From Bacteriovoracaceae bacterium (GTDB taxonomy: Bacteria > Bdellovibrionota > Bacteriovoracia > Bacteriovoracales > Bacteriovoracaceae): a stretch of 64,000 nt of DNA. A model generated the notes under the pieces. The model searched no databases, was not told the origin of the DNA, and saw only the letters and a list, made by a program, of their open reading frames with translations. Positions 3,373-60,539 of the stretch are shown here, in pieces; positions within the stretch are counted from its first letter, which is position 1; every line of letters begins with the position of its first letter. Location of the stretch: NCBI GenBank assembly GCA_965243145.1, contig CBDEUB010000002.1, forward strand, positions 878,354 to 942,353, written 5' to 3'. The position numbers and the translations under genes are program-made.

Positions 3373-3382
3373 ATTTGATAAC

Positions 3383-33899: not shown

Positions 33900-33984
33900 G
33901 CCGAAGTGGCGGAATGGTAGACGCAGCGGATTCAAAATCCGCCGGCCACTGGCCATGGGGGTTCAAGTCCCTTCTTCGGCACCA
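33900..33984 (+). tRNA. tRNA-Leu (anticodon CAA), CCA encoded
   Basis: The acceptor is GCCGAAG/CTTCGGC. The anticodon stem-loop is GCGGA-TTCAAAA-TCCGC. There is a long variable arm and a T-loop TTCAAGT. Confidence 0.9.
33968..33984 (+). repeat. attL core (within tRNA-Leu 3' end)
   Basis: Exact 17-bp match to 60523-60539. Confidence 0.8.
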
Positions 33985-34060: not shown

Positions 34061-34079
34061 ATGGGCTAAATTTGGGCTA
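34061..34079 (+). repeat. 19-bp direct repeat ATGGGCTAAATTTGGGCTA (copy 1), possible integrase arm site
   Basis: Exact second copy at 60361-60379. Both lie just inside the island ends. Confidence 0.6.
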
Positions 34080-34081
34080 CT

Positions 34082-35176
34082 TTATTTTACCAGCGACAGG
34101 CCTAAAGCATTGCCACTAGCATTAAACTGCACTGTCTCCGCTATATTTTGCATAAAACTGGGATGGAGGGCCGCATACTTTTTAGCAGTCATTTCCACCG
34201 AGGTATGCCCAAGAATTTTAGAGAGAGCGAAGATGTCCCCACCCGCCATCACAAAATTGGAAGCGTAGGTCGTCCTCAAGTCGTGAAAGCGGATTCTCGG
34301 CACTTCGGCCCACTCTATGGCCTTTTTAAAGTGGCGATCCGATAAATGGTTCTCATCAATCAGTCCGCCATTTTCCAGAGCAAACACAAAGCAGGGATGC
34401 CTTTTGTTACGGGAGAGCTTCTCCAAGACTTCCCACGCCGAGGCATTGAGCGGAATATGCCGAATCAACCCCGTTTTGGTGGTGTCTTTTAGGCCGTAGC
34501 GGTCTTTGATTCTGGAAATCTCAATCCGCCTCTCGGAGAGGTTTACCTTGTCCCAACACAGGCCCACCAATTCTCCCCGGCGCATCCCCGTATTGAGAGC
34601 AACCACAAACAAGGGATAAAAAGGACTATCCACATTGGCCGACAAAAATTGCTTAACCTCGTGGAACTGCCAATAAGTTAAACTTCTCGGCGTTCCCTTG
34701 ATTTTTCTCATGCTTTTGAGGGGGTTGCGAACCAAGTAATCCAATTCAACGGCACTATTGAGGATTTGCTTTATCAAAGTTAGCATCCAATTGAGCCTAC
34801 GCGAACCAAGCCCATTTTTGCGGCAATGGTTGAGCACCTTTTGAACTAAAATTTGGTCGATTCTCTCAAGTTGGTTACTCTTGAAATTGGGCCTAAGGTA
34901 CTTTGTATAGGCCCTCTGATAATCCTCTAGCGTTCTGATGGCCAATCCTTGGTTTTGCTTCATTTCAAGCCACAATTTGAAAAAGGACTCAAAATCTATG
35001 GATTGAATGTGGGCAATACCCAAAGCCTCTTTCTTTTGCTGCTCAAGTGCAAAAGATGTTTTCCACTTGAGCGCATCCGATTTTCTCTTAAAAGTTCTGC
35101 TAATGGCCTTGCCATTAACATAAACTTTTTCTCGATAGCTGGTGACTTTACCAGCTTTGTTTCTGATCGTTTCCAT
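34082..35176 (-). CDS. int: tyrosine-type site-specific integrase
   Basis: The C-terminal catalytic region is RRGELVGLCWDKV...HDLRTTYASNFVMAGGDIFALSKILGHTSVEMTAKKYAAL (R...HxLR...H...Y). The start was chosen at METIRNK. The ORF is open up to 35290. Confidence 0.9.
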   Translation of the reverse strand: METIRNKAGKVTSYREKVYVNGKAISRTFKRKSDALKWKTSFALEQQKKEALGIAHIQSIDFESFFKLWLEMKQNQGLAIRTLEDYQRAYTKYLRPNFKSNQLERIDQILVQKVLNHCRKNGLGSRRLNWMLTLIKQILNSAVELDYLVRNPLKSMRKIKGTPRSLTYWQFHEVKQFLSANVDSPFYPLFVVALNTGMRRGELVGLCWDKVNLSERRIEISRIKDRYGLKDTTKTGLIRHIPLNASAWEVLEKLSRNKRHPCFVFALENGGLIDENHLSDRHFKKAIEWAEVPRIRFHDLRTTYASNFVMAGGDIFALSKILGHTSVEMTAKKYAALHPSFMQNIAETVQFNASGNALGLSLVK

Positions 35177-35378
35177 GTTCGTCTCCTGAGTTAGAGAAGC
35201 AAACATGGCACTGTGGCCTAATTTTAGAATGTCAAAAAGCGTCTCCTCTTGCGAGGACAAGTCTTCTATTTTCGCAAAAAGAAGACGCAATCAATGTAAC
35301 TCGTGCCGTGTTTGCCGTCAATAAAAATTGCTAAAATTTGCGAGAAAATTGCGGAAAAATTCCGCTAAAAAGATGGGC

Positions 35379-35564
35379 CTAATGGCACATTTCGACGGTG
35401 TGTTTTTGAATCCACTCTTTGAGGTCACACTCTCGAAACCTCACCAAATTGCCCACTTTGATATAGGGGATGGCCCTTCTAAAAATGGCACTGCGAAGCC
35501 AACTCACTTTTACATTGAGGAATTTGGCGGCATCATCGACGGTCATTAGAGTTTGATTATCCAT
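35379..35564 (-). CDS. xis: excisionase / AlpA-type helix-turn-helix protein
   Basis: 61 aa: LMTVDDAAKFLNVKVSWLRSAIFRRAIPYIKVGNLVRFRECDLKEWI. Confidence 0.8.
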   Translation of the reverse strand: MDNQTLMTVDDAAKFLNVKVSWLRSAIFRRAIPYIKVGNLVRFRECDLKEWIQKHTVEMCH

Positions 35565-35687
35565 GTTATAAACTCCTTTTTGGGCCTAGATTTGGCCATG
35601 GTTATTCCCAGCGTTGATCTCAAATCCCCCATTGCTCTGGGTAGCGGTGGGGCATTATTAAATTTTGGAAACGGATTAAATTTGAGT

Positions 35688-35930
35688 TTATTCAGATAAC
35701 TGTTTGATAATTTTTTTTAATTTGGCCGAATCTTTTTTTAAGATCGAGACTTCAAAAAAAAGCAATCCAAAAGAATAAGTCATGCCAGAAGTCAAACTCA
35801 CGACTAATTCTTGATCCACATTTTGGCCTAATTGTGCTTCTATAGCGATTCCTTCACTGTCTTTATCGTAGTAGGCGCGGATTGTGTTGGGGCCTTGTCT
35901 ACTGTTTTTTGTGTCTGATAATTTGCACAC
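35688..35930 (-). CDS. hypothetical protein
   Basis: 80-aa ORF in the AT-rich island. No motif recognised. Confidence 0.35.
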   Translation of the reverse strand: MCKLSDTKNSRQGPNTIRAYYDKDSEGIAIEAQLGQNVDQELVVSLTSGMTYSFGLLFFEVSILKKDSAKLKKIIKQLSE

Positions 35931-36063
35931 AATGCCCCTTTCAAAAAACTCTCGGATTTCTTTGCTACTTTTACTCGCTAAATACTCTTAAAATTGCTCA
36001 TATTGATCTTTATCAACCAGTTCCCCCAGTTTTTTTAAAGGAGTAACAGCAATTTTTCTCCTT

Positions 36064-36720
36064 TTAGGCATTACAGTTCTGTGGAGATAGTATCTTCCCC
36101 ATATCTTCGATTCTCTTTTGATAGAGAATATCGATCAGGGCCATAGTATCGGCCCGCTCTGTCTTTCCCTTGTGAGGTTCAAATAAATCCTCTATAGAAA
36201 CCATCAAATGTTCCAACTCTTCCTTTGTGGAGCAAATTGCCGTTACTGCCTCTAGGTAACTGTAGGGAGGGCAAAAAATCCCGGTTTCAAACAAACTCAC
36301 GATTTTAGACAACCTCGCTCCCTTGGGATAAGAAACGCCCAGGATTCCCGTTTTTTTCAGTGCGGAAAGCCTCTTGCCTAATTGTTCAGGCGACAATTGG
36401 CCTCTCTGCCGAATATCTTTTAAAAAATTGGCAATGAGAGATACGATGGATTCGGATTTTTTTTCTACTATGTGATATGAAGCAAAAATATTATCTCTTA
36501 TAAACGCATCTAAATCTTGAATAATGACATCAAAATATCTTCTCCCTTCGTTCAAAAATTGAAGCGACAAGTTGTTGGCGGCCACAACTGCCGAATGTCC
36601 ATCTTCCTCTAAATATGCTCCCACTAAAAAGGCCGTTTCATAGCGGTTGTCATCAATTAAAACTTTGAGTCCAGTTCTATTATTTTCAGTTTTCATAAAC
36701 GATTTCTCCTTTGTTGTCAC
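36064..36720 (-). CDS. hypothetical protein with internal HTH-like segment
   Basis: 218 aa. It is the last gene of three overlapping genes (ATGA-type overlap at 36720). The HTH-like segment is ARLSKIVSLFETG. Confidence 0.5.
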   Translation of the reverse strand: MTTKEKSFMKTENNRTGLKVLIDDNRYETAFLVGAYLEEDGHSAVVAANNLSLQFLNEGRRYFDVIIQDLDAFIRDNIFASYHIVEKKSESIVSLIANFLKDIRQRGQLSPEQLGKRLSALKKTGILGVSYPKGARLSKIVSLFETGIFCPPYSYLEAVTAICSTKEELEHLMVSIEDLFEPHKGKTERADTMALIDILYQKRIEDMGKILSPQNCNA

Positions 36721-37022
36721 TAGCTTTTGCTGTGTTTTATTTGTGCTATTACATCGAGCGGACTAACATTAAAATGCCTACATAATTTATCGAACTCAGA
36801 AAATCTTATATCTTCCAGGCCTCGCTCTATGCGAGAAATTTGACTTTGATCCTTTCCCAAAAGGTAAGCTACAATTCTTTGTGATTGATGGTTTTTTTCT
36901 CTTATGGCCTTTAAAGCTTTTCCGGTTTTAATTTTAAATGCATCATCATTGCTAATCTTTTTTTGAATAAAACACTCTTTAAATGACCGATTCGTAGCTT
37001 CATCATCAATCAGAATTTTCAT
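36720..37022 (-). CDS. XRE-family helix-turn-helix transcriptional regulator
   Basis: KALKAIREKNHQSQRIVAYLLGKDQSQISRIERG. Confidence 0.75.
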   Translation of the reverse strand: MKILIDDEATNRSFKECFIQKKISNDDAFKIKTGKALKAIREKNHQSQRIVAYLLGKDQSQISRIERGLEDIRFSEFDKLCRHFNVSPLDVIAQIKHSKS

Positions 37023-37470
37023 TTTCCTTACCTTTTTTCTTATTTTCCTTTCTTTGCTTTATTGCTTCTTGAAATTTAATCATTGCTTCTTTACTGGCAC
37101 CTGATAAAAATATCTCATGCACTTGATGAATAACTTGAATTTTTGAGGCATTTAAGGCCGGAAAGAAAAATTTTTGATAAGACATCATCCTTTTTTCTTT
37201 GGCCTCTCTATCCTCATTTTTAATCAGAGGGACATATAAAATCGCCTGATTTCCCAACCAAGGAGCGGAGGGCATTGGATAATCTAAGTTACTTTTTTCG
37301 ATGATTTTAAATTTTTCGTGGAGATAATTTTTAATACTGATTCTGTCGGGTGTTTCTACTCCACTAGGATTTTCCTTCTCGATTATCTCTGAGATTATTT
37401 CAATGATGGCAATGACATCTTCGTAAGAATCCACATTGGCCACCCTGCTTTTGTTTGTATTCTTGCCCAT
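37006..37470 (-). CDS. hypothetical protein
   Basis: 154 aa. It is the first gene of the three-gene leftward operon and overlaps the next gene by 17 nt. No family recognised. Confidence 0.5.
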   Translation of the reverse strand: MGKNTNKSRVANVDSYEDVIAIIEIISEIIEKENPSGVETPDRISIKNYLHEKFKIIEKSNLDYPMPSAPWLGNQAILYVPLIKNEDREAKEKRMMSYQKFFFPALNASKIQVIHQVHEIFLSGASKEAMIKFQEAIKQRKENKKKGKENENSD

Positions 37471-37639
37471 ATCTGCTCCTCATTTTATATGAATTTTTAA
37501 GACAATAACATATTTTATATGAAATACAAGAAAAATATTACCTTTCTAACATATTGAAATTATTAGGTTTAATAATATTTTTTGGCATTTAAATAATTTT
37601 CAGGCCTAATGAGGCCGCCCGTATTAAAATACTGATTAA

Positions 37640-38044
37640 ATGAAGAACGAAAGTAATAAAGTTGCTCAAATTGCTATGCCTTTTCGGCAAGTTTTTAGAG
37701 ATTTTTTCAAATCAACTTTATGTAATGACAAAGGTGAAATAACGCAATCAGAAAAAACTAAGCTCGCCAGGTATTTAAAACAATCAGAGTCACAGGTCGA
37801 AAAAATTATTTATTATGGCCTTGGTGGGTTCGACCCTATCGTGGCGATTTTTGAATATTGCTTAAAACGAGAATCAAAAGATGCTGCTAAAGTTTTAAAA
37901 AACACTTTGTTAAATATTAAGAAAAATCACCATTTGTTAGATAAGGCCGATGAAAAATGGCTTTCCATACCTCTTAAAAAAAGAAGATATTACATGGCCG
38001 TTATTGAGGCCGCCGAACTTTTGGAAAAAAAACTTTTGAAATAA
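37640..38044 (+). CDS. hypothetical protein, possible HTH regulator
   Basis: 134 aa, divergent from the 37470 operon across an AT-rich 170-bp spacer. The HTH-like segment is TKLARYLKQSESQVEKIIY. Confidence 0.45.
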   Translation: MKNESNKVAQIAMPFRQVFRDFFKSTLCNDKGEITQSEKTKLARYLKQSESQVEKIIYYGLGGFDPIVAIFEYCLKRESKDAAKVLKNTLLNIKKNHHLLDKADEKWLSIPLKKRRYYMAVIEAAELLEKKLLK

Positions 38045-38167
38045 CTGAAGTCTAATAATAGTTAGCATCAGAACTCTACAAAATAATAAAAACATCTTCT
38101 GGTTTCACCTTCTGAAAAAATGCCTGGAGCACCACCTTTATAGATGGAACTCCAGGCCTGAAGGCCC

Positions 38168-38345
38168 TCAGGAGAGGGCCGGACGAACCTGGTAGCCGAT
38201 CCTTTGGCTGCCGTATTTTGATCTGATTTCCTCGATGGAACTATCGCCCTTGTAATACCCTCGCTTTTCCGATGGCGGGTGAAAGTACCACATTTGCTTT
38301 TTGCGGTTCCAATGGAAACTCGCCTGTTTGAAGGCCTCCTTATGA
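38168..38345 (-). pseudogene. C-terminal fragment of an IS-disrupted phage/plasmid-type J-domain gene
   Basis: It encodes ...(H/N)KEAFKQASFHWNRKKQMWYFHPP...IEEIRSKYGS. It joins in frame to the N-terminal fragment at 41931-42253 when the IS stack is removed. Confidence 0.7.
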
Positions 38346-39373
38346 GAAGCTGTCTTAAAAGTCCATTTTCCTATCAAATCTCCTTAGCATGAGGTGAGTC
38401 ATAGCAATATAAAGAATGGCCTTGCTTGTCTCGGGCAACCTCTCGTAATCCTTGCTGAGTCTCCTGTAGTTGAGTAACCAACCAAAAGTTCTTTCCACAA
38501 TCCAGCGTTTCCGAATAACTTTAAAACCTTTACCCTTATCTTTTCGTAAAACAATATCTATTTTTCTGCCAAAACAATATTTTGCAATTTCGACAAATGC
38601 TCCTCTATAACCTCCATCGGCCCATATAACTTTTAACCTAGAAAATAACCCCTTCATTTTATCCAAAACTAGCAGGCCACCTTCCTTGTCTTGAATACTG
38701 GCCAAGTGGACAACAACCGTCATCAGCAAACCGAGCGTATCTACCAGAATATGGCGTTTTCGGCCTTTAATTCTTTTCCCTCCATCATATCCCCTCTCTT
38801 TCCCGGCCACAGAAGTAGTTTTTACGCTTTGACTGTCGATAATGGCCGCCGATGCTTGCGATTTTTTGCCCACGCTTTTCCTAATCTTTCGCCTCAAATG
38901 ATTGTTAATTTCTTCCCAGAGTCCACGAATACGCCAGTTTCTAAAATAGGTATAAACTGTTTTCCAATGAGGGAATCCTTCGGGGAGATAACGCCAAAGG
39001 CATCCAGTTTTTACGATATAAAAAATTGCGTTGAGAATTTCTTTCAAATCATATTTTCGAGGGCGGCCATACCTCCCCGACTGAGGGATTAGTTTCCTCA
39101 ATCTTTTCCATTGTGCTTTGGTTAAATCAGACGGGTAACCTTTTCTTTGTCGGGATTTTTTTCTGGTTTTTCGCTTTCTCTTTCTGCTTTTTGAGACTTC
39201 TTTTTTAGTCGTTCTTGACACATAAACCTCCGTGGCGTTGCAATTATTGTGCGAAAAAGCAGGCCACAAAGGTTTATGTGTAGGAATATTAGGCCATGTA
39301 AAACAAAGGTTGTAAAATGAATATTTTTAAGTTTTAGGGATTGTGCGCTTAGACGAATGGACTTTTAAGACAG
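38346..39373 (-). mobile_element. IS5-family (IS427/IS1031-like) insertion sequence, 1032 bp; its last 4 bp (CTTC) are displaced to 41927-41930
   Basis: The IRs are GAAGCTGTCTTAAAAGTCCATT (38346-38367) and AATGGACTTTTAAGACAG (39356-39373) plus CTTC. The flanking triplets are TGA (38343-45) and TTA (41931-33), TNA-type with one mismatch. Confidence 0.8.
38355..39269 (-). CDS. IS5-family transposase (DUF4096 N-terminal + DDE domain)
   Basis: YPSDLTKAQWKRLRKLIP...EILNAIFYIVKTGCLWRYLPEGFPHWKTVYTYFRNW, then IIDSQSVKT, VIWADGGY and ERTFGWL. Confidence 0.9.
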   Translation of the reverse strand: MWPAFSHNNCNATEVYVSRTTKKEVSKSRKRKRKTRKKSRQRKGYPSDLTKAQWKRLRKLIPQSGRYGRPRKYDLKEILNAIFYIVKTGCLWRYLPEGFPHWKTVYTYFRNWRIRGLWEEINNHLRRKIRKSVGKKSQASAAIIDSQSVKTTSVAGKERGYDGGKRIKGRKRHILVDTLGLLMTVVVHLASIQDKEGGLLVLDKMKGLFSRLKVIWADGGYRGAFVEIAKYCFGRKIDIVLRKDKGKGFKVIRKRWIVERTFGWLLNYRRLSKDYERLPETSKAILYIAMTHLMLRRFDRKMDF

Positions 39374-39417
39374 AAATAATGGATGACCGCCCTTTTTAAC
39401 CGGGGACTGGTTACCCC

Positions 39418-40503
39418 GGCCTTGTTGCGTAAATGAGGCAGGTTAAAGCGTTGAAATAAGAGGAAAATGCCGGCATCCTATATTTTGGAAAAAAGCAAGG
39501 AGGCCGGCGATGTCAAAGGTAGCATATAAAATCCAAAATTGGAGTCAATATAATCGTGCCCTCATCAATCGAGGCAATATCACCCTATGGTTTAATGAGG
39601 ATGCCATCCAATCCTGGTTTGCTGACACGGAAAGTCGGAAAGGGAGGCCATATTTTTTTAGCGAAACTTGCATCCTCTTATGCCTCACCCTCCGCGCTCG
39701 ATTCAACCTTCCCCTGCGCACCACTCAAGGTTTGATTGAAGGACTCTTTGAACAGTTGGGTTTGGCGCTACCTGTGCCCAGCTATACCCAGCTTTGCCGT
39801 CGCTCCAGCAGTATCAAAATTCCCTCCAAGGCCAAGAATATCCGCAGGCCTATTAATGTTGTGGTGGATTCCACTGGCCTTAAAGTGTACGGGGAAGGGG
39901 AATGGAAAATGAGGATTCATGGGAAATCGAAAAGGCGGACTTGGCGCAAGCTGCATTTGGCAGTGAATCCCCAATCGTTTGAGATAGTGTCGATGGAATT
40001 AACAGAGTCAAATAGAACGGATGGAAAAACGCTTCCGAGTTTGATTAAAGATATTCCCCAAATTAAAGAAGCGTTTGCGGATGCGGCGTATATGTATAGG
40101 GAATGTTTTGAGTCGATAGATGCCAAAGGAGGGAAGGCGATTATTGATTTGCGAGGGGGAACTTCGCTGGCGCGAGCGCCTACGCCAGGTTTGGCACAGA
40201 GGAATAGGATAGTGAGAGAACTTTGGGAGAGTTCGAGTAAGAGGAGTTGGAAGAAGAGAGTGGGTTATCACAGGCGGAGTTTAGTGGAAACCCAGATGTT
40301 CCGCTTTAAAAAGCTGCTAGGGCCTTCGCTGTTGTCGAGGAAGATGGCCACCCAGGTGGCGGAAGCAGAGATAAAGACGATGGTGCTGAATTGTATGACT
40401 CGTCTCGGAATGCCTCGGACTATGGCCATTCCCACTGGATAGCAAAATTTTTCCTTTCCTGTGGGGCCTCCGCAACTCTAATCCCGATTTATGCAACAAG
40501 GCC
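39418..40503 (+). mobile_element. IS5-family, IS903-group insertion sequence (1086 bp)
   Basis: The terminal IRs are GGCCTTGTTGCGTAAAT and GGCCTTGTTGCATAAAT. As I remember it, this is close to the IS903 IR GGCTTTGTTGAATAAAT. A perfect 9-bp TSD GGTTACCCC lies at 39409-39417 and 40504-40512. Confidence 0.9.
39510..40442 (+). CDS. IS903-group DDE transposase
   Basis: 310 aa. YKIQNWSQYNRALINRGNITLWF, VVDSTGLKVYGEGEWK, AYMYRECF and SLVETQMFRFKKL. Confidence 0.9.
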   Translation: MSKVAYKIQNWSQYNRALINRGNITLWFNEDAIQSWFADTESRKGRPYFFSETCILLCLTLRARFNLPLRTTQGLIEGLFEQLGLALPVPSYTQLCRRSSSIKIPSKAKNIRRPINVVVDSTGLKVYGEGEWKMRIHGKSKRRTWRKLHLAVNPQSFEIVSMELTESNRTDGKTLPSLIKDIPQIKEAFADAAYMYRECFESIDAKGGKAIIDLRGGTSLARAPTPGLAQRNRIVRELWESSSKRSWKKRVGYHRRSLVETQMFRFKKLLGPSLLSRKMATQVAEAEIKTMVLNCMTRLGMPRTMAIPTG

Positions 40504-40529
40504 GGTTACCCCATGTAAAAGTCTGAATA

Positions 40530-41672
40530 ATGGACTTTTACAAACCCAAAAGGAGGGCCATCCAAATGAAAAATGTACTTTATGTGGGATTAGATGTCGA
40601 CGACAAGTCTTTTCACGGAGGGGGATTCTGTGAAGCAACAGGAGAAACTTTGGAATTTAAATGCAAGGCAACAAACGCCAAATTACTGGGAAAACTCAAA
40701 AAACTCGAAGGCCAAGGATTTCAGTTGAAAACCTGCCATGAAGCAAGTTACATGGGCAATTCCCTTCACCGCTATTTAATCTCCAAGGGGATCGATAGCA
40801 CGATCATTGCGCCTTCGATGATTCCCGAGTTAGCGAGCGGACGGGTGAAAACCGATCGAGTCGATAGCAACAAACTTGCCAAGTATTTTGCAAAAGGACT
40901 TTTAACGCCCGTTTATATTCCTGACAAAGTTGACGAACAGGCCAGAGACATTATCCGCTCCCGTAGATTTTTTGTTGAGCAACGAAAATCTCTAAAAAAT
41001 CACATTGTATCGACTTTAAAGCGATACGGACTCAAATATAATGAAGGCGGGGAAAACAAGTCATATTGGACAATTTCGCATATGGCGTGGATTCGCAGGG
41101 AAATAAAAACTTTGGACGACTCAGGCAGGATAAATCTGGAATTTCTTCTTGGGCAATGTGAAAGGATGAATGACTGTATTGAGGAATACGATAAAAAAAT
41201 CGAAGAATTGTCGGAACTGAAAAGGTATAAAAAGAAAAAAAATGCTCTTACTTGTTTTAGAGGTATAAGCACTTTTTCTGCAATGGCGTTGATAACGGAG
41301 ATTGGAGATATTGAAAGATTTTCCCACCCATCGAAACTTGTTTCGTACGCTGGCCTGGATGTCAGTGAATACAGTTCTGGTGGAAAGGAAAAGAAATTTG
41401 GAATAACAAAAATGGGGAATCGTTGGATAAGAACGACGATTGTTGAAAGCAGTCAATTCTCGGGGCGGATATGCCAGATAAGCAAAAGATTAAAAGAGGC
41501 CAGGAAAGGCCAATCGAAAGCAATAGTTGCCATTGCGGATAAATGCATGAAGAGACTACGAAAAAAATCTGTAAGACTTCAAAATATGAACAAACATAGC
41601 AATAAAGTGAAAGTTGCCTGTGCAAGAGAGCACCTGTGTTTTGTCTGGGAGGCACTCAACGCAGCGGCCTGA
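40530..41672 (+). CDS. IS110-family transposase, copy 2
   Basis: It differs from copy 1 by two residues (V>I and M>V near the C-terminus). The likely true start is 40566. Confidence 0.92.
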   Translation: MDFYKPKRRAIQMKNVLYVGLDVDDKSFHGGGFCEATGETLEFKCKATNAKLLGKLKKLEGQGFQLKTCHEASYMGNSLHRYLISKGIDSTIIAPSMIPELASGRVKTDRVDSNKLAKYFAKGLLTPVYIPDKVDEQARDIIRSRRFFVEQRKSLKNHIVSTLKRYGLKYNEGGENKSYWTISHMAWIRREIKTLDDSGRINLEFLLGQCERMNDCIEEYDKKIEELSELKRYKKKKNALTCFRGISTFSAMALITEIGDIERFSHPSKLVSYAGLDVSEYSSGGKEKKFGITKMGNRWIRTTIVESSQFSGRICQISKRLKEARKGQSKAIVAIADKCMKRLRKKSVRLQNMNKHSNKVKVACAREHLCFVWEALNAAA

Positions 41673-41924
41673 AATAATATTAACTGATGACAGTTCCGGT
41701 TTAAAGGAGAAGATAAGGATTTTTTGAGAATTTAAGAACCATGATGTGGTGAAACCCTCGGTAAAGAAGCTTGGTTAAAGTTTCCGATCACAGATAGAGG
41801 ATAACACCGCTCGAACCAAGCTTAATGCGTTAACCAGCACGCGAATATGAGGTTGGAAGTCAAAGGAACTCATAAATTTCTTAAAAAAAACGAATTTTCT
41901 TCTTGCCGGGCGGTCATCCATATG
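41673..41924 (+). ncRNA. candidate IS1111-type bridge/seek guide RNA region of copy 2
   Basis: Same as in copy 1. The target-like segment is at 41762-41780 and the stem is at 41767-41776 and 41813-41822. Confidence 0.45.
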
Positions 41925-41930
41925 AGCTTC

Positions 41931-42253
41931 TTAGGGAAGGTGTTGCCAGACACCCACACCCAAGAGCCGCAAACTTCAATGTTGATGCCAGCCAGATGGA
42001 CGATGGCATTGAGTGCCTGATTCAGCGCCTCGCCGTAGTCGCTGAAGTTTTGGTCGCCGTAGATGGTGAGAGGAAACCGCTCTTGTTTCAGTGTCTCAAA
42101 GGCCTCATTGACCGCCTTCATAATGGCCAAACCAGCAGGGTTCACATCGGGGTGATACTTTTTGCAGGCCTTGCGATAGGCACTTTTCACTTCTTCATAA
42201 GTTACTCGTGCCTGGTTGATGGAGAGGATGTTGAGCGAGTCTAGGAGTTTCAT
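41931..42253 (-). pseudogene. N-terminal fragment (J domain) of the IS-disrupted J-domain gene
   Basis: MKLLDSLNILSINQARVTYEEVKSAYRKACKKYHPDVNPAG...CGSWVWVSGNTFP. The ORF then runs into IS sequence (KKLIWMTARQ...). Confidence 0.75.
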
Positions 42254-42276
42254 AACCGTTCCTTTGTTGGAGTTTT

Positions 42277-42332
42277 AGGGCCTCTTATGATGCCCCTTCA
42301 ACCAAAGGGCCGAGGGGCATTATAAGAGGCCT
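42277..42332. repeat. ~20-bp-arm imperfect hairpin in the leader/upstream region of the J-domain gene
   Basis: The arms are AGGGCCTCTTATGATGCCCCT and AGGGGCATTATAAGAGGCCT, about 19 paired positions with a 15-nt loop. They are flanked by CCGTTCC and GGAACGG. Confidence 0.6.
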
Positions 42333-42906
42333 GAGAGAGCGGGAACGGACAGGCCAGCTTGGGCCACACAGCAATTGAATGACAAAAATTCCCATTTTTG
42401 GCGTGAAATTGCGGCCCAAGCGTCTCGGGCCTGGAAGTGAGAGCGAACGGCAACGGAAACAAAGGTGGGTGAGAAAACCGGACGATTCATTATTCTCTCT
42501 ACTTTAGGCCAGGACTGAGGAAGGAGTGGCCACTATCTGCAAAGTTGCAAAAGTCCCGATGTGCCCAAGTGGCCGGCCTTGAGGTAAGCGGCCATAAGGC
42601 GGCAAGACCTGAAAAAAAACGGCCCTTTCCATCGAAAGTGCAAACATGAAAGGACGAGGGGTCGAATCAAGGCGACAAAAGGCCATATCCATGCGGCGGC
42701 AAATATTGAAAGGGCCTGGGTTTGGGGTGGCACATATCTCGCAAGTTAGGACACGACAGAGCAAGTTACTTGGGGCCACAAAAGTTTAAAGTGGTTGATT
42801 TGCCCGTTTGGAAAAAACAGAGGGTATGAGGGCCGCCAACGGGAGAAGCAAGGCCACCAGGGGCATTGTCGCCCCGAGTGGCCTGAGAAAATGGAAGGCC
42901 GCCCTT

Positions 42907-43329
42907 TTACAGGCGGTCTTTCAGGTCACAAGTCCAGTAATACTGGCCTCCGATTTCGGTGAGTTCTTCTTCTGCAACCAGGTCGTCAATGTACTCATTT
43001 TTGGCCTCACGCCACCAAGTGGAGTGTTCTTTCAGGGTGCTGATGACATCAACTTCAAGTGGCCCCACCATGGCGGTTTCCTCGTAAGCACCTTCCATCA
43101 TGTGCTCGAAGAGTTCATCGGTATTGACGCTTTCCATGCCATCCAGTAGGTACTCAAATGTCCAATCAACGCCGTATTCAACTCCATAACCAGGCATGAG
43201 TCTCATTAGGTCATCGCTTCCACAGCGACGGCAGCGGCCACAGGGGCAGCTAGTGTAACAGGTGTAGCAGAACGGGACAGTCGCTTGCATGGCCTTCTCT
43301 TCGAGTTTGGTTTTAATCTCAGCATTCAT
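42907..43329 (-). CDS. hypothetical acidic Cys-rich protein
   Basis: The start is at MNAEIKTK, 7 nt after AGGAGG. The Cys cluster is FCYTCYTSCPCGRCRRCGSDD. No family recognised. Confidence 0.55.
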   Translation of the reverse strand: MNAEIKTKLEEKAMQATVPFCYTCYTSCPCGRCRRCGSDDLMRLMPGYGVEYGVDWTFEYLLDGMESVNTDELFEHMMEGAYEETAMVGPLEVDVISTLKEHSTWWREAKNEYIDDLVAEEELTEIGGQYYWTCDLKDRL

Positions 43330-43530
43330 AGCATTCCTCCTTTGGAATCGGTTTAAGGTTGGGTGCTCTAAAGAGGCCAAAGCGAGCGCAAGTCAAGAAA
43401 AAAATTGGGGGAGACCTTTAGGGGGAACCGATTTTTTTCTTGACTTGATTAAGCGAGCGGCGGCCTAGGCTCAACACCCATTAAACCGATTCAAAATCAG
43501 GAGGAATGTTTGCTCAAAGATTAAAACCAA
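43309..43530. repeat. long imperfect palindrome centred near 43418 (core of an inverted gene duplication)
   Basis: Perfect 17-bp arms CAAGTCAAGAAAAAAAT (43389-43405) and ATTTTTTTCTTGACTTG (43431-43447). The outer arms share GGTTTTAATCT, ATTCCTCCT and GAATCGGTTTAA in mirror order. Confidence 0.8.
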
Positions 43531-43825
43531 ACAGGAAGGCCTTGCTGGACGGCCCCATTGCCACCGTTACACTGCTTCCTTTGGGCCTTTTGCCTTGCTT
43601 ATGCGCAGGACTTTGACACTTGCCCGGTGTGGGTGAATCGGCGGGATAGACTGGAACACCTGATGGAGCATGAAAGGCCCAATACCTCGATGAGAGGAGG
43701 ACAGAAGGAAATGCTCAAACCGCCGCCCGAGTGGGCCACTTGAAGGCGGAGACAGTGCTGCCTATAAGGACTCCTGTGACGGTGTTTAAAGAGGCAAAAG
43801 AGTGGGGAGACGGCCAGTTCATAAG
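43506..43825 (+). pseudogene. decayed inverted paralogue of the 42907-43329 gene
   Basis: It has a mirror-image RBS and ATG (aggaggaATGtttgctcaaagattaaaaccaaac versus aggaggaatgctATGaatgctgagattaaaaccaaac). DNA similarity continues (for example gtgggccacttgaag versus gtggggccacttgaag) but with frameshifts and stops. Confidence 0.5.
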
Positions 43826-45747: not shown

Positions 45748-46050
45748 TTAAAAAAATACAAAGAATAAACCAAGCACTAAAAATAAATAACCAAGAATAT
45801 ACAAGTAAATCGTACTCTGGTTCATAAATTTTATTCCAAAAGAAAAAAAATGTCTCTTTTTAAAAACAGATATTTTTGAAATGAGCAACAATGAAAAACC
45901 CAGCGTAGAAATCCCTATTCCCAAAATATGAGATTTGTTATCTTCAAAAAATTCATACAAAATCGCTGCGACTAATATAATCCAAACAATACCAAATAGT
46001 ATTGTCCATATCTTTCCAATTACTGATTTGTGATAAAAGTCATAATCCAA
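45748..46050 (-). CDS. small 3-TM membrane protein, candidate immunity protein for the orphan Rhs-CT
   Basis: 100 aa and highly hydrophobic. It lies immediately downstream of the orphan toxin tip. Confidence 0.5.
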   Translation of the reverse strand: MDYDFYHKSVIGKIWTILFGIVWIILVAAILYEFFEDNKSHILGIGISTLGFSLLLISKISVFKKRHFFSFGIKFMNQSTIYLYILGYLFLVLGLFFVFF

Positions 46051-46065
46051 ATTACAAATCTCGAC

Positions 46066-47166
46066 TTAAAGAACACATTGTGGCCCTTCTTGTTCATTTC
46101 CAATTAGTTTATCAAACTCTTCATCAGTAAATGTGCCAAAAAGTATAAAAGGAGAATTGATTATTTCTAGAGTTAAAATCTCAAATTTTCCTGTTCTTCT
46201 ATTTCTTCTTGAACAAGTAAAAGTAGTAGGAAAAGCAGTTCTAGTGCAAAAAACGACTTCTCCTGTAGGATCTGTAAAGTTTAAAGGGTTATTCCTAACA
46301 TATCTATAGAGGTTAAAGTCCCCTCCATCAATTCCAATCGGATCTTCCGAAATAAACTTCCCCACATTGGGATCGTAGTACCGAGCACGGTAGAAATAGA
46401 GTCCCGTTTCAGGATCGAGTTCTCGTCCTGTAAAAGCGTAGGGGTTTTCCAGATAATTCGTACTTGAAGGCGTGATCTCGCTTCCATCTTTGTCGTAGAT
46501 AGTGGTATTACCAAAAGCATCGTAGACATAGCGCTGAACAACGACACCTTCAAAGTCTGTAATCTCGGTGATATTGCCGAGTCTGTCTCGGTGAAAATAA
46601 AACTCCTGCCTAGAATAGTTGGCGTTCGTGTAGGGACTTGTCGGACGCTCCATCCGCACGGGTTCGTCTACGCTATTGCTGTGGACAAATTTGGCGCGAA
46701 AGAAATTGTCTTCGTCGTATTCCAAATAAATATTGTCTCTGTCATAGACATAGCGGACAATATTTCCATCGACATTTTTTTCAATTCTTCGGTCGAGAGC
46801 ATCGTATTTATAAGTAATAGTGGAAGTGGGGTCGGTGTCTTCACTGGCGCGCTTTAAAACCTGAATCAGTCTATTTTTATAATCCCATTGGTATTCAGTG
46901 ATCTGGTTATTCGCTTGCGAGATTTTTTTGCTAAGGTTGCCATTTTTGTCGTAAGTGTAATTAAAATCCCCGTCCCACAAAATCCGGTTGTTGGCATCCG
47001 AATAGGAATATGCCGTTGAGAGAGTCCCGTTCCTGTCTTCGGTAATAGCGTTTCGGTTCCCAGTGGATTCGTAAGCTAATTGGTTAAGTTTATCTAAAAA
47101 TGCCCTGCTAGCAAAATTAGCAACAGTGGTTTTTAATTTATAAAAATCGTCGAGTCGAGTGATCAT
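46066..47166 (-). CDS. orphan Rhs/YD-repeat C-terminal cassette with alternative toxin tip
   Basis: Residues ~30-300 are nearly identical to the C-terminal core of the main Rhs gene. They end in YRYVRNNPLNFTDPTGE and are followed by a distinct 63-aa tail. The gene overlaps the upstream gene by ATGA. Confidence 0.8.
   Translation of the reverse strand: MITRLDDFYKLKTTVANFASRAFLDKLNQLAYESTGNRNAITEDRNGTLSTAYSYSDANNRILWDGDFNYTYDKNGNLSKKISQANNQITEYQWDYKNRLIQVLKRASEDTDPTSTITYKYDALDRRIEKNVDGNIVRYVYDRDNIYLEYDEDNFFRAKFVHSNSVDEPVRMERPTSPYTNANYSRQEFYFHRDRLGNITEITDFEGVVVQRYVYDAFGNTTIYDKDGSEITPSSTNYLENPYAFTGRELDPETGLYFYRARYYDPNVGKFISEDPIGIDGGDFNLYRYVRNNPLNFTDPTGEVVFCTRTAFPTTFTCSRRNRRTGKFEILTLEIINSPFILFGTFTDEEFDKLIGNEQEGPQCVL
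46291..47074. repeat. 784-bp repeat (copy in orphan cassette), ~95% identical by eye to 47949-48732
   Basis: Collinear match at a constant offset of 1658 bp. Confidence 0.85.
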
Positions 47167-47672
47167 GTTTCAAACCTTTTGCAATTTTTTCTAAATAGTA
47201 CCATAGCTTGACAAAAAATAAAGTACCCTAATTGTAGATATAAAAATATTGAAAATCCAATACCAATTTTTTTTTCGAAATCATCAAAATAGTAAAGATT
47301 TTCTTTGGTAGTAAATAAAAATATAAATTGAAAAATAAACATTAAAATATTATAAACAAGAAGAAGCAAAGTGGTTCTAAAGACTATTATCATTAAACCC
47401 AAAAGAAATCCTAAAAAAAAATAAGTATTTATTTTTTTCAAAAAAAGGAATGTAAAAGAAGCAAGAGAGTAAAGCCATATCATAACTGGATCAAAGTAGT
47501 TTATAGAGCTTTCTAAGGATTGTTCATTTCTGTCAAACGGATTAGTGATCCAAAGGAAACACAATAGCCCTAAAATACCTAAAATAATGTTTAATGTTAA
47601 TTTTTTTTTAAAAGCTCTATAGCTAAGAATGCCATAAAAATCTATAAATAGTTTATAAAAACATCTCTTCAT
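47163..47672 (-). CDS. polytopic membrane protein, candidate immunity protein for the main Rhs toxin
   Basis: 169 aa with ~5 TM segments. It lies 22 bp downstream of the Rhs stop. Confidence 0.5.
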   Translation of the reverse strand: MKRCFYKLFIDFYGILSYRAFKKKLTLNIILGILGLLCFLWITNPFDRNEQSLESSINYFDPVMIWLYSLASFTFLFLKKINTYFFLGFLLGLMIIVFRTTLLLLVYNILMFIFQFIFLFTTKENLYYFDDFEKKIGIGFSIFLYLQLGYFIFCQAMVLFRKNCKRFET

Positions 47673-47693
47673 TTTTATTGCAACCTCAAAAGA

Positions 47694-50600
47694 CTAACTA
47701 TTTTCTCTTAATTCACGTTTTAAATCCTCTACTTCATCATCAGGTATTGGGTCTACTCCTTCCTCATCATCTTCATTACACTTTGGGTTGATTTTACACA
47801 AAGCTCTCTTGCGAAAATTTCTAAGATTTTCTTCTGCCTCTTCTCTCTTTTTTTCAAAATCAATTATATTTCTGAAAAAATCCCCTATACCAACATCAAT
47901 CTTACAAAATCCTTGCAGCCCAAAAGGGTCTACGAAATTCAGAGAATTATTCCCCACATATCTATAGAGGTTAAAATCCCCTCCCTCAAACCCAATCGGG
48001 TCTTCCGAAATAAACTTCCCCGTATTGGGATCATAGTACCGAGCGCGATAAAAGTAGAGTCCCGTCTCGGGATCAAGTTCTCTGCCAGTAAAAGCGTAGG
48101 GGTTTTCCAGATAATTCGTACTTGAAGGCGTGATCTCGCTTCCATCTTTGTCGTAGATGGTGGTATTACCAAAAGCATCGTAGACATAGCGTTGAACAAT
48201 TGCACCTTCAAAGTCTGTAATCTCGGTGATATTGCCGAGTCTGTCTCGGTGAAAATAAAACTCTTGCCTAGAATAATTGGCGTTAGTGTGGGGACTCTCG
48301 GGGCGTTCCATCCTCACGGGTTCGTCGATGTTATTGCTATGAACAAACTTAGCGCGAAAAAAGTTGTCTTCGTCGTATTCCAAATAAATATTGTCTCGGT
48401 CATAGACATAGCGGACAATATTGCCATCGACATTTTTTTCAATTCTTCGGTCGAGAGCATCGTATTTATAAGTAATAGTGGAAGTGGGGTCGGTGTCTTC
48501 ACTGGCGCGCTTTAAAACCTGAATCAGTCTATTTTTATAATCCCATTGGTATTCAGTGATCTGGTTATTCGCTTGCGAGATTTTTTTGCTAAGGTTGCCG
48601 TTTTTGTCATAAGTGTAATTAAAATCCCCGTCCCACAAAATCCGGTTGTTGGCATCCGAATAGGAATATGCCGTTGAGAGAGTCCCGTTCCTGTCTTTGG
48701 TAATAGCGTTTCGGTTCCCAGTGGATTCGTAAATGTATGTATCGCTACCTATACCAACGGGAAGAGTGGCGGAAGTCAGTTGGTTGAGTTTATCGTAGAT
48801 AAATCTTTGAGTTTGGTTGACGGTAATGCCACTTCTCTGATTAGAAACACTGGTGACAAAATCGTTCAAGTTGTATTGATAGTTAAAGGCAGAGAGAGTT
48901 TGAGAGCCTTTGCTATAGCTTAAACTTTTTAGCTGTCCTTCCTTTCCTGGAATATAGGTATAGCTTCCCGTGATGCCGTTGGGGTAGCTTATCCTGATTC
49001 TTCTCTGTCCCCTATCGTAGCGAAAACTCAAATAGCTGGGGTCGTTGTTGGAAGAGTGCCCCATCTTAACCAGGTTGTCGTTTTCATCGTATTCGTAACG
49101 AACTAGCGAAGAGTTAATTTCAGTATCCCCTATTTGAGAGATATTGCCGTTTTGATCGTAGTTGTAAAAAACAGAGATGCTGGGAAGGGAGGTGCTTCCC
49201 TTGGTGGATGTCACGGACAAACGGCCCTGGATGTCGTAGTTAAAAGCATTTTTGGAGTGAGCGTTTTCCGCCAACATGAGATTTCCGGCAGCGTCGTATT
49301 CAAAACTCGCCAGCACATTACCATCCCCATCCATTTCCCTGGTAAGGCGATTGAGGGCATCGTACTGGTAACGGAGCGTCTGCCCGTTCCTGTCCGTCCT
49401 TTCAATGACATTGCCGCCCTCGTCATAGACAAAGGACTCCGAGTTTCCGAGGGAGTCGGTTCTTTGAATAAGTCTGTCCATGGAGTCGTAAGCGAAACTG
49501 GTGTCGTAACTCCTTTGGTTGCGGATAGAGGTTATATCCCCCTTGGAATTGTAGCTAAACGCCACTCTGTAGTTCTTGGCATTATCAAGGTAGATTAGGC
49601 GGTTGTTAAAATAATTGCGAGTGTACGATGTGGTATTCCCCTCGGCATCCGTTTCGCTGATAAGTTGTCCAGCACTGCTATATGTCCTGGTGAGCAATGT
49701 TTGATGGAACCTATCCTTTATGACCGTTTGGTTGCCATTGCTATCGTATTCAAAAAACTGCCCAGTTTGAGAGGCCTCATCCCACACAGATTCCAGCAAG
49801 TACCCTCGGTCGTAAGTCATTTTTATGGCCTGCCCGTTGGGATAAATAACCTTGGAAACATTGCCAAAACGGCCATATTCAAATTGAGTTACTTCACCCT
49901 TGGCATCGGTAATTTTTATGGGTTGATGAAAGTTATCCGTCGGATTGGCCAAGTATTCAAATTTGATCGTCCCAATGCCACTTCTAAAAGAAGTCAGAAT
50001 GTCTCCAAAAAGATTATAAGTATTTTCCAATTCCACATCGCCATTTTCGTTGGTGACTTTGGTTAAATTGTTGTCAGCATCGTATTCAAATTCCCGCATA
50101 CCACCCATGGCGTTGACTTCGCGGGTAAATGCGCCAAATTCGTTGGTTTGGTACTTGGAGGTATTCCCCCTAGCATCGGTTATGGCGTGCATGGAGTCCT
50201 CTTCCACCAAGGCCATAATGGGGTCGCTCAAAGGGCCTTTATCCAAATCCCCTAGTTGATTGGCCTTAGAATTGACTTTGGTTTGAGTGCCATCCTGTCT
50301 GATGGTGCGGATGACGCTACCACGCTTGTCGTAAGCATAAGATTTCGCTCTGCCCAATCGATCCGACTGCGAACTCATAGTCTCATTAGAAGCATAAGTA
50401 AAACTTCTTTCCGTGGCATCAGGGCCTATGATTTTGATTAAATATCCTTCATCGTCGTGCTCCAGGCGGGTGATTCGGCCAAGAGGGTCTCTAATGGTAT
50501 CCACATACCCATCCGCTCCGTGTTCAAAAAAAGTCGATCTTTCGTTAGGGTGGTAAATATACCAAATTTGCCCATTATCTCGATAAATATAGAATGTTTC

Positions 50601-53600
50601 CCTCCCGTAGCGATCCACCTTGGTTTGTAGTACTCCCTGGGCATTAAACCCGTAGCGAACTCCCTCTTTGGTGATTCTCTCAAACCCACCTTGGGGAAAG
50701 TTAAAAGCGCGCAGGGTGGAATAGTCTCCGTCAGGAGAGATATAAGTACCATCAAAGTTGCGGGTAAAAACTTTATAGTTGAAATTGCCAAAAACTAGCA
50801 TGATCTGAGACGAGGTTGCTGAAAGTCTCCCATTTGCCCCATGAAGCCGGTGGAAATCCTGAAACATCCAACCCCGCCCAAATTCCGATTCTGGGGAAAT
50901 ATAGGGAACACTAAAGGGGGTGCGACTGCGGGTAATTGAAGGCGTGGGGTTTTCCGTGGTTGCCACCGCTCCCGCTGCGGTTTGAACCGATATGGCCCGA
51001 TAAACCCCCGTATCAAGCCCCTCTAAATTAAGCGATGTGGCCAAAGTAAAATCTTTAAAATCCCCGCCTTCTACAGCGTCCGCCGTCGAAAAATACACGG
51101 GTTCGGATTCTGTACCCCTAAAGATGATACTCATGCCCAGAACTGGAGGGGGTGGAATAACCATAGTTCCGTCTGGAATCGGAAAGTTTGGCCGTGCCCT
51201 GGTAAAGGAGCGGAACATGAGCGGGTTTTCCAGAGAAAAAATATTTTTGTACCCCATCTTGAAAGCAACACTTTCTCCCAAACTGCGGAACTCCACCAAG
51301 GTGTGTTCTTCCTTGAGTATTCCCGTCGATGGACAAATAATGCTACCAGAACACGAGTTGGCATCCTCAGAGCCGTTGTCTCCCATCATGGTCTCACGGC
51401 CTTCAGGAGTAATCATGGTGGGTGCGTGCCAAGTAGTGGCACGGATGCCCCCGCTAATAGTTTGGATACTGCTTCCGTCTTCAGTCACCTGCCCCAGCCC
51501 CACCTGCTCAAAACCGCCTCGCTCAGAAAGCGAGGTCAGCGCCACAATGGCACCAGGGGGCAGGCCATCCAGGTTGGGGAAGGTAATGGGCACAGGATTG
51601 GCAAAGCGGATATTGACTGGCTGGAGGGTAATCAAAAAATTGGGGCGCAAATCTTCGGGAAGTTCCCTAGGGGCCGATTCCACTGGAACCATGGAAACCG
51701 AAAGAGGGCCAGAGTACATGGTGCCGTCCTGATTCATTGCCGTGTTGGGAGGAATCATCATGCTGGTGCCAATATCAGCATTTTGCACCATGGCCATCTT
51801 GTCGGGTTCAATCATCACCATGCTTTTCGCCTCAACCCTGGGCAACATGTAATCGCGGAAGGGGCGGTTGTGGACATTGGCCACAATTTTAAGACGGCCC
51901 TTAAAATCCCCGTAGGTGCTTCCGTCCTGGGCAGTTACCCCCGAAGCGTCGAGACTGACAATCCTTGCCCCTGCAGGAATATTGGAAAGGGTAAACCTCC
52001 CCTGAGCATCACTGACGGCCACCTGAGAAGACCCCTCCACGCTAACCTTTACTCCTGCCAAGGGAATGGTAAGGCCCTTATCCATGGCCGTGCCGTCGAG
52101 AACCCTGGAAGAAAGGGTGGTGGGTTGGTTGGGTGCTGGTGCTTGAACGGTGATGGTGACTTCTTGAGAAGCAGATTCCTTGCCATCAGTGACAATAAAG
52201 GCCACCTTGTGACTCCCCACTTGAGAGGGCGAAGGTTCAAAGCGAAACTCGCGGGTGGTATCGCTAAATTTGGCGTTTAAAGGAAGGTTTCTAGCAAAGT
52301 AAGAGAGCTTGTCGCTTGCATCTTTATCACTGCCAGAAATCTTGAAACGCAATTCCGTTCCCACTTGCAAGACCTGGGGAGAGGTAATCGCTACAAGTGT
52401 GGGGGCCTGGTTTATCTCGCCAGTGACAGTAATGCTAACTTCATCGGCCGTGCTAGTAAGTTTTCCATCACTTACAGTCAAACTCACCTTGTAAGTTCCG
52501 TCCCGATCGACGATCAAACTGGGAGTCGCCAAATCAGCATCGGCCAAGCGGACATTGCTCAACATCGGCCGAGCAACAATCTGCCAGGCATAACTGAGTT
52601 TATCACCCTCTGGGTCACTGGAATTTTCCCCATTCAAGGTCACCAAATCCCCGGAAATAGCACTGAGGTCGTCCCCTGCGTTGGCAACGGGGGCCGTATT
52701 ACGGCGCATAATATCAATGGTCACCATAGAAACGGTATCGGAATCCCTATGGCCATCGTTTGCCTTATAGGAAAAGAGCACTTGTCCTATAAAATCCATA
52801 GCGGGGGTAAAAGTACAGGTAAGACCTGCCGTTCCCTGAAGGCAGTCTGATAGCGTTCCCGAAGTAGGTGCGTTCATCAAAGTATAAGTCAACGGGTCGT
52901 TTTCCTCATCGGTGGCACCATTCAAAGTAAAGTGCAAGGGAGTGTTTTGCGTTCCCTGAAAGGCCTGATCTCCCACCATGACTGGAGGGGTGTTGGTTTC
53001 CATGACAGTTATACTCTGTGCCTCGGTCTGGTGAGACAGTCCCGCATTGTCGGTGACTTTGAGAATAACTGTGTAGCTTCCAGCAGTGTCAAAAGTGCGC
53101 TGTTGGGTTTCACCTATAAGAGTGGTGCCATCGTCAAAAATCCACTCGTAAGAAACAATTGTGCCATCTGAGTCACTAGAACCCGAACCATCAAAATTCA
53201 CCGTCAAAGGTGCCTCTCCCTGGGTAGGCGAATAAACAAAACTGGCCATGGGAGTTCCCGCACCCCTTTCCACTGTGAGAAAAATCTGTTTGCGAGAAAT
53301 GGCATCATCGTCGTCGGTGACGGCGAGAAGCACTCTTTGCGTTCCAGCGGTTTGAAACACTTTATTCAGCGAACTTTGAGTGGAAGTTGTGCCGTCAGGG
53401 AATGTCCACAAATAAGAGGCAATACTTCCGTCGGGGTCGTTGGATGCTGAGGCATCCAGATTGACTGTCAAAGGTGCTTCTCCCGAAAGAGCGGAGGCAT
53501 CAATTTTAGCGCGAGGTGGGCGGTTAAACTCGCTGGGAGTTAAACAGCGTCCCGATTTGAATGCGCCTTGAAATCGGGTGTATTTGGCCAACTGGCAGCC

Positions 53601-54401: not shown

Positions 54402-54418
54402 AATTTGCGCCCTCGCTC

Positions 54419-60522: not shown

Positions 60523-60539
60523 TCCCTTCTTCGGCACCA
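60523..60539 (+). repeat. attR core (duplicated tRNA-Leu 3' end)
   Basis: Exact 17-bp match to 33968-33984. GC-rich DNA resumes after it. Confidence 0.8.

Follow-up and report, generated by a model that had tools for sequence, protein, structure and literature searches.

How a single gene came to lie split beneath three different insertion sequences (ISs), each nested in the next, is the question raised by positions 38,168 to 42,253 of the DNA stretch analysed here, a window of 64,000 nucleotides from a Bacteriovoracaceae bacterium (C2:878354-942353, where C2 is the 2.84-Mb chromosome contig; 47.7% G+C; the assembly also has a separate 4.2-kb contig). The gene encodes a J-domain protein and belongs to a genomic island at a tRNA-Leu gene. 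We conclude, with a probability of roughly 0.9, that three successive and independent transpositions struck this one gene. An IS5-family DDE element would have inserted first, at TGA in codon 108 of the 165-aa J gene, thereby splitting it. An IS1111-type element of the IS110 family would then have integrated site-specifically 4 bp inside the right terminal repeat of the IS5 element (...AAGACAG^CTTC, the caret marking the insertion point here and below), with no target duplication. Last, an IS903-group element would have inserted 44 bp inside the left end of the IS110 element with a 9-bp duplication, parting the left tip from the transposase gene. Each junction bears the signature of its own transposition mechanism, which recurs at other genomic copies of the same element and is not a product of chance. 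The coordinates of all features are collected in Table 1.

The preliminary description of this locus held that the stack cleanly splits one J gene whose halves rejoin in frame, and this is borne out by a family of homologues and by a collinear paralogue. When the two flanks were joined with one copy of the flanking triplet, an open J-domain reading frame was restored on the minus strand, at 165 aa in place of the roughly 167 aa first given, and its rebuilt junction reads ...GNTFP(H or N)KEAFKQ.... Used as a query, the rebuilt protein returned 87 homologues, the best three being 165-173 aa long and 80, 75 and 72% identical. The homologues span the junction ungapped as G-N-T-x-P-(H/N/S/Y/F)-K, and all 15 full-length aligned homologues, together with the paralogue, retain a residue between P and K. 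The rebuilt protein consists of a J domain (PF00226, E = 2.2e-10, residues 8-58), with the HPD motif at residues 34-36 invariant across 36 homologues, and a conserved C-terminal domain of ~100 aa. Its structure model is confident (mean predicted local distance difference test score, pLDDT, 83.7) and superposes on solved J domains at 1.5-2 Å root-mean-square deviation, and for the C-terminal domain the model-based fold search gave no significant PDB match outside the J domain. For annotation, a single dead gene accounts for two open reading frames (ORFs), 41870-42253 and 38168-38377, each being one of its halves.

In protein, the rebuilt gene is 98% identical to an intact paralogue at C2:583134-583628, and its 5' part is 99% identical. 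The two copies differ at 16 of 498 nt with only 3 amino-acid changes, suggesting that both were under purifying selection until recently. On the gene strand the junction of the paralogue reads CCC-TCA-TAA, and its single TCA corresponds to TGA on the + strand of the window. The flanks of the stack, 38115-38346 and 41933-43724, directly abut at the paralogous locus, which represents the empty site. An orthologous empty site was looked for through the right flank, which was found in none of 30 related genomes searched; the best match there is weak (69% identity, E = 5e-6, ~145 nt, in genome G012), and outside the stack locus the right flank was found only in the paralogous island of the same genome.

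The outermost layer is an IS5-family element. The CTTC beyond the IS110 element had been described as the displaced end of its right terminal repeat, and removal of the IS110 element indeed joins ...AATGGACTTTTAAGACAG to CTTC, giving a 1,032-bp element with perfect terminal repeats of 22 bp (GAAGCTGTCTTAAAAGTCCATT at 38346). All three family assignments proposed earlier, IS5, IS110 and IS903, were upheld by curated models above their cutoffs. For the outer transposase the model is NF033580 (IS5 family, 231 bits, cutoff 110), with the Pfam domains PF13340 (DUF4096) and PF01609 (DDE_Tnp_1). This copy is 99.6-99.8% identical to two others, the genome having about three, and a 3-bp duplication of the form TNA is found elsewhere as well, as TAA/TAA at the intact IS5 copy C2:2778936 and as TTA/TTA at a 175-bp miniature element. 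The subgroup label given earlier, IS427-like, is provisional. The nearest plasmid-borne relatives of the outer transposase are cyanobacterial IS5-family transposases of ~51% identity, such as ISAcma43-like ones.

For the middle layer, IS110 copy 2, the arithmetic of the preliminary description (2,553 = 1,458 + 1,086 + 9 bp) and its coordinates hold. Without the IS903-like insert and one 9-mer, this copy is 99.3% identical to copy 1 over 1,458 bp and 100% identical to seven other genomic copies, out of 12 in the genome. The last two letters of the element, AG, also end its left flank, which leaves its boundaries uncertain by 2 nt. The transposase matches NF033542 (IS110 family RNA-guided transposase) at 187 bits (cutoff 140), PF01548 (3.8e-11) and PF02371 (8.9e-17), and its named relatives come from Bacteriovoracaceae and Halobacteriovorax assemblies. 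Only 97 bp of non-coding DNA precede the ATG, versus 254 bp downstream of the gene, and a longer non-coding region downstream of the transposase gene is typical of IS1111 types (PMC11187229). The subterminal inverted repeats, the 3' non-coding region and the DEDD domains support a place for this element in the IS1111 group of the IS110 family. A relative on an ENA metagenome contig (L003, positions 2904-4363) is 93% identical, or 94% in protein, and keeps the pairing of its subterminal repeats by a compensatory double change (ACCACCC/GGGTGGT vs ACCGCCC/GGGCGGT). Elsewhere in the genome, at C2:1566908-1568418, a diverged IS110 copy (94-96% identical) has lost its left end, with unrelated sequence in its place. 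About 100 bp upstream there is a decayed IS903-type fragment, and the locus resembles an older pile-up of one IS on another.

IS903 and ISKpn26-type elements are ~1.06-1.09 kb long and have a single DDE transposase, ~17-bp repeats starting with GGC and a 9-bp target duplication. The innermost element shares this length, the single DDE transposase, the repeats and the duplication, with ~43-44% protein identity to its nearest plasmid-borne relatives. Its transposase matches NF033579 (the IS903-type IS5 model) at 290 bits (cutoff 140), with PF13737 (DDE_Tnp_1_5) and PF01609 (DDE_Tnp_1). The perfect 9-bp duplication reported earlier within the left end of IS110 copy 2 was found as identical GGTTACCCC on both sides. 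The terminal repeats do have the length of 17 bp first given, but they agree at 16 of 17 positions (GGCCTTGTTGCGTAAAT vs GGCCTTGTTGCATAAAT). This copy is 100% identical to nine other genomic copies, and 10 of the 13 IS903-type copies in the genome are flanked by perfect 9-bp duplications. Both the outer and the innermost IS5-family elements appear to be unnamed species. At C2:1352461-1354641, two identical IS903-type copies stand head to tail with exactly 9 bp (TATATACTT) between them; the second copy has this 9-mer as its right-hand duplication too, one copy having inserted directly against the end of the other.

The position of the IS110 element inside the IS5 repeat recurs across the genome. 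All 12 IS110 copies were oriented and their flanks compared. Eight of them share the site ...A(C/T)AG^CTTC, with TTA next in six and TAA in two; for most of the eight an IS5-type terminal repeat, ...TTTTAAGACAG or ...TTTTCAAACAG, is visible around the site. Among the eight are insertions at either end of different IS5 copies, for example in the left repeat of the IS5 copy at the contig start. IS110 copy 1, also in the window, occupies the same 4-bp offset in a terminal repeat of the 175-bp IS5-type miniature element, whose TTA duplication is perfect. A ninth copy is at CACAG^CTTCTCC, another at CACAG^TTTTTAA, and the two diverged copies (94-96% identical) are at unrelated sites; the target of the L003 relative, GTGAAG^CCTCTC, is not an IS5 repeat either. 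Integration of the IS110 element leaves no target duplication, and flank and element end have only the AG core in common. About 10 IS5-type repeat ends are still unoccupied in the genome. The other end of the 175-bp miniature element (CTTC-TAA) is unoccupied (window 11090-12728).

When the IS110 copies were aligned, two short segments were seen to contain nearly all the variation of the 3' non-coding end, and these segments co-vary with the target. In the main type, the reverse complement of segment 1 is AG-CTTCTT(TA) and the right flank is AG^CTTCTT, while segment 2 is GATCACAG and the left flank ends in ...ACAG; at two sites outside IS5 elements the left flanks of this type are CACAG and TCACAG. 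In copy 2077461, segment 1 in reverse complement is AG-GCCCT with ^GCCCT as the right flank, and segment 2 is GAAGATAG with the left flank GGATAG. Copy 1567000 has AG-GGCCG with ^GGCCG to the right and GAAGAAAG as segment 2, and its left flank is unreadable in its truncated left end. In L003, G-CCTCT goes with ^CCTCT, and segment 2, GTGGAG, with the left flank GTGAAG. Segment 2 follows the left flank, from ACAG through GATAG to GTGgAG. With four distinct guide/target pairs, each with an exact right-side match of 5-8 nt, chance is not a reasonable explanation.

These segments have the properties of a seekRNA or bridge RNA. In a consensus fold of the four sequences, both lie in one internal loop closed by an invariant CCUC/GAGG stem, and the short apical stem stays paired through two double changes; the single-sequence fold of the 3' end has z = -4.7. 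The AG core is contained in both segments, and the segment predicted to pair with the top strand is 5' of the one predicted to pair with the bottom strand. This order, with the top-strand match 5' of the bottom-strand match, is that of IS1111 elements (Siddiquee et al. 2024, PMC11187229), and overlap of the guide segments at the core dinucleotide has been described (Durrant et al. 2024, PMC11208160). Candidate matches to the element's own joined ends are ATATGAG near 41846 and ATTTCT, the complement of AG+AAAT, near 41876. From its sequence, the 3' end would thus encode a guide RNA that is presumably expressed and directs the placement of the IS110 element by the known seekRNA/bridge-RNA mechanism. 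A perfect hairpin with a 9-bp stem is also found at window 40515-40541, immediately ahead of the ribosome-binding site within the left end of the IS110 element, and contains AATGGACTTTTA, a 12-nt copy of the IS5 repeat adjoining the insertion point. As an extra reprogrammable guide this hairpin was rejected, being identical in copy 2077461 and in L003, whose targets differ.

The order of the three events was read from the nesting. The IS5 element must have come first, since an element with a split repeat would not have transposed. Between the two inner events we infer that the IS903-type insertion is the later one, which is simplest because the genome holds no other IS110::IS903 composite. All three events are recent, as the inner layers are 100% and the IS5 layer 99.6-99.8% identical to their sister copies and the gene halves have no further lesions. 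Several points weigh against this history. The triplets flanking the IS5 element are unequal (TGA vs TTA), making its duplication imperfect by one base. Nesting leaves the order of the two inner events loose, and the composite keeps its tips, transposase gene and guide region. On the left side, guide and IS5 repeat match over just 4 contiguous nt, AG core included, and a search of 37000-43500 against Rfam 15 at a permissive threshold gave no matching family for the predicted guide. For the assembly, the support considered here is its internal consistency.

The alternative that survives best, though we consider it unlikely, is that the IS903-like element inserted into an IS110 copy at some other place, and that the IS5 repeat afterwards received the 2,553-bp composite as a unit. 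In such a composite the transposase gene would be intact, and the tips, the two subterminal repeats and the guide region would all be present; transposase and guide could also come from other intact copies. However, the genome has no second IS110 copy with an IS903-like insert, the 1.1-kb gap between left tip and gene should weaken any promoter formed at a circle junction (judging from PMC11208160), and insertion in situ takes fewer assumptions.

Much less probable is an assembly artefact, in which copies of repeats would have been joined into a chimera. All three elements are indeed multi-copy and nearly identical (about 13 IS903-type, 12 IS110 and 3 IS5 copies), which is where assemblers tend to go wrong. 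The internal evidence to the contrary is nevertheless strong. Mis-joins at repeats do not make a perfect 9-bp duplication around the IS903-like element; nor would they put the IS110 element at a 4-bp offset used by eight other copies, or leave a repeat tip and two gene halves that rejoin in frame and collinear with a paralogue. A single 2.84-Mb contig that resolves dozens of identical repeats of 1-1.5 kb also implies long-read data.

The insertions have probable consequences for the elements themselves. The IS110 element cuts the last 4 bp off the right repeat of the IS5 element, and therefore this IS5 copy should be immobile unless the IS110 element excises precisely. The IS903-type insert puts 1.1 kb between the IS110 left tip and the gene and leaves both tips, the gene and the guide region intact; copy 2 is therefore probably weakened in cis but could still be mobilised in trans. 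The stack would thus have immobilised its IS5 copy and probably its IS110 copy.

The inequality of the two target triplets had been ascribed either to a mutation after insertion or to a more complex history, and the paralogue resolves this as TGA plus one substitution. Since the paralogue and the three nearest homologues all have His at the junction (TCA on the gene strand, TGA on +), TGA is the ancestral triplet and the right-hand copy has undergone a G-to-T change at 41932. A point substitution is the likeliest origin of this change; given that IS5 copies diverge by 0.2-0.4%, the chance of a substitution among the 6 flanking bases is estimated at ~2%. The altered base is position +6 after the insertion point, within the stretch that would pair with the predicted guide segment 1: TGA gives CTTCTG, and TTA gives the guide-matching CTTCTT. 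Genome-wide, T stands at +6 in 6 of 8 occupied repeat ends and in 1 of 10 unoccupied ones (Fisher p = 0.013; p = 0.024 in a stricter count). As the sample is small and non-independent, this enrichment is a hint that pairing may reach +6. The simplest account is that a chance substitution made this IS5 end a better target, which is why it is seen after the IS110 landing. It is highly improbable that guided integration, or the repair accompanying it, rewrites a mismatched target base towards the guide. An IS5 element whose repeats extend by 1 nt fits worse than TGA plus one substitution. Least credible of all is that the unequal triplets reflect no simple insertion, two IS5 copies at different sites having recombined or the neighbouring TTA having been the target. 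The empty site CCTTATGAGGG does have TTA directly preceding TGA. Against this reading, one paralogous gene is collinear with the two flanks and has them exactly adjoining, a TTA target would remove the codon for the residue that the paralogue and 15 homologues keep between P and K, and a 6-bp duplication would leave TTATGA on each side, which is not seen.

Landing in the ends of other mobile elements is a familiar habit of this family. Partridge and Hall reportedly described in 2003 that IS4321 and IS5075, of the IS1111 group, lie in the 38-bp terminal repeats of Tn21-family transposons. Like these two, the element here has subterminal repeats with short extensions, a fixed position and orientation in a transposon repeat and no target duplication, whereas its target is a 22-bp IS5-family repeat, and miniature derivatives thereof, 4 bp from the tip. 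Its transposase has 368 aa, compared with the 330-350 aa given for IS1111 types (PMC11187229). IS1383, of the IS110 family, integrates into the inverted repeats of IS1384 in Pseudomonas putida H (Mueller, Lauf & Herrmann 2001, as cited in PMC11208160). There as here, an IS110-family element targets the terminal inverted repeat of another IS, so that one IS comes to be nested in the other; the stack differs in host, sequences and target repeat and has a third nested IS, and the comparison is drawn from the secondary account.

As with the seekRNAs of ISEc11, ISPa11 and ISKpn4 (PMC11187229) and the bridge RNA of IS621 (PMC11208160), guides and targets co-vary. The guide here is predicted in silico, the core is AG versus CT in IS621 (PMC11208160), and in contrast to those systems a long right-side guide (core + 5-6 nt) is combined with a short left-side one. 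The stack is an ordinary result of known transposition mechanisms, with each layer typical of its family, and no new system; its three-deep nesting, empty site, guide/target variants and the coincidence at +6 are neat and would not surprise a specialist. Neither the stack nor the guide variants change what is known of the mechanism. They do provide three ISs, with no close named relative in the collections searched, defined to the base together with their targets. They also offer a clean natural case in which an RNA-guided element of the IS1111 type uses other mobile elements' termini as safe landing sites. Of the four guide/target pairs reprogrammed in nature, three come from this genome and the fourth from a metagenomic relative, and the enrichment within the genome hints weakly (p about 0.01) at pairing out to position +6.

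The J protein had been said to be of a type known from phages and plasmids, and the records agree: a relative occurs in 2,697 plasmid records, of which 2,212 are predicted conjugative, and in 10 phage records, and phrog_15863 matches the protein at E = 2.9e-35. One plasmid relative is found next to genes for replication and stability on an E. coli MOBP plasmid. This protein, WP_001025387.1 (NZ_CP070064.1, MOBP relaxase, MPF_T), has the same architecture as the J protein here, with an N-terminal J domain bearing HPD and a conserved ~100-aa C-terminal domain, and both genes lie on mobile DNA close to maintenance genes. The two proteins are 43% identical, and the one here is encoded on an integrated island, the other on a plasmid. 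A third J-gene remnant, fused to another island gene, is seen at C2:358716-359318 (-): the 201-aa lipoprotein-like ORF P0088 terminates in a stretch 90% identical to the final 40 residues of the J protein. The N-terminal part of P0088 has a 68%-identical relative at C2:573890-574393, near the intact J gene.

Table 1. Positions of the features discussed, in window coordinates.
Feature	Position	Strand	Remarks
J gene, 5' part	41934-42253	-	start codon at 42253; codons 1-106 + 2 nt; HPD present
J gene, 3' part	38168-38342	-	175 nt including stop codon
Left flanking triplet TGA	38343-38345	+	unaltered copy of the target duplication
Right flanking triplet TTA	41931-41933	+	altered copy; TGA expected
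IS5-family element, main body	38346-39373	-	1,028 of 1,032 bp
CTTC, last 4 bp of IS5 right terminal repeat	41927-41930	+	displaced by IS110; rejoining restores perfect 22-bp inverted repeat
IS5-family transposase gene	38355-39221	-	single ORF, GTG start behind GGAGG, no frameshift
IS110-family element copy 2, IS1111 type	39374-41926	+	2,553 bp with IS903-like insert; 1,458 bp without
Left subterminal inverted repeat ATGGATGACCGCCC	39379-39392	+	14 nt, 5 nt from tip; partner 41908-41921, 100% complementary
IS110-family DEDD transposase gene	40566-41672	+	368 aa from ATG behind AGGAGG ribosome-binding site
3' non-coding end with predicted seek/bridge RNA	41673-41926	+	254 bp
Predicted guide segment 1 TAAAGAAGCT	41762-41771	+	predicted pairing with core AG + CTTCTT, top strand
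Predicted guide segment 2 GATCACAG	41786-41793	+	matches ACAG on top strand
IS903-group (IS5 family) element	39418-40503	+	1,086 bp, 44 bp inside IS110 left end
IS903-type transposase gene	39510-40442	+	
Left 9-bp target duplication GGTTACCCC	39409-39417	+	
Right 9-bp target duplication GGTTACCCC	40504-40512	+	
IS110-family copy 1	11097-12554	-	intact reference
175-bp IS5-type miniature element	12555-12725 and CTTC at 11093-11096		hosts IS110 copy 1
tRNA-Leu(CAA)	33900-33984		island begins immediately after it
attL, 3' end of tRNA-Leu(CAA)	33968-33984	+	17-bp direct repeat
attR, same 17-mer as attL	60523-60539		direct repeat of tRNA 3' end
Tyrosine integrase gene	34082-35290	-	first gene of island

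The island that carries the interrupted J gene is delimited by attL and attR, spans ~26.5 kb and has a low G+C content, at 35-50% versus ~58% in its surroundings. A second, related island at C2:580468-588430 adjoins tRNA-Phe(GAA) and holds the intact J paralogue. Between this island and window 34061-36939, the integrase and regulator genes show 88% identity, and the two islands diverge in the ~1.2-1.7 kb separating the regulators from the J gene. The island in the window also encodes, within 45748-57901, a 2,235-aa RHS-repeat protein with PKD and cadherin-like domains, a 1,160-aa RCC1-repeat protein and two small ORFs of very low G+C (24-26%), and it bears an orphan RHS C-terminal cassette at 46066-47166.

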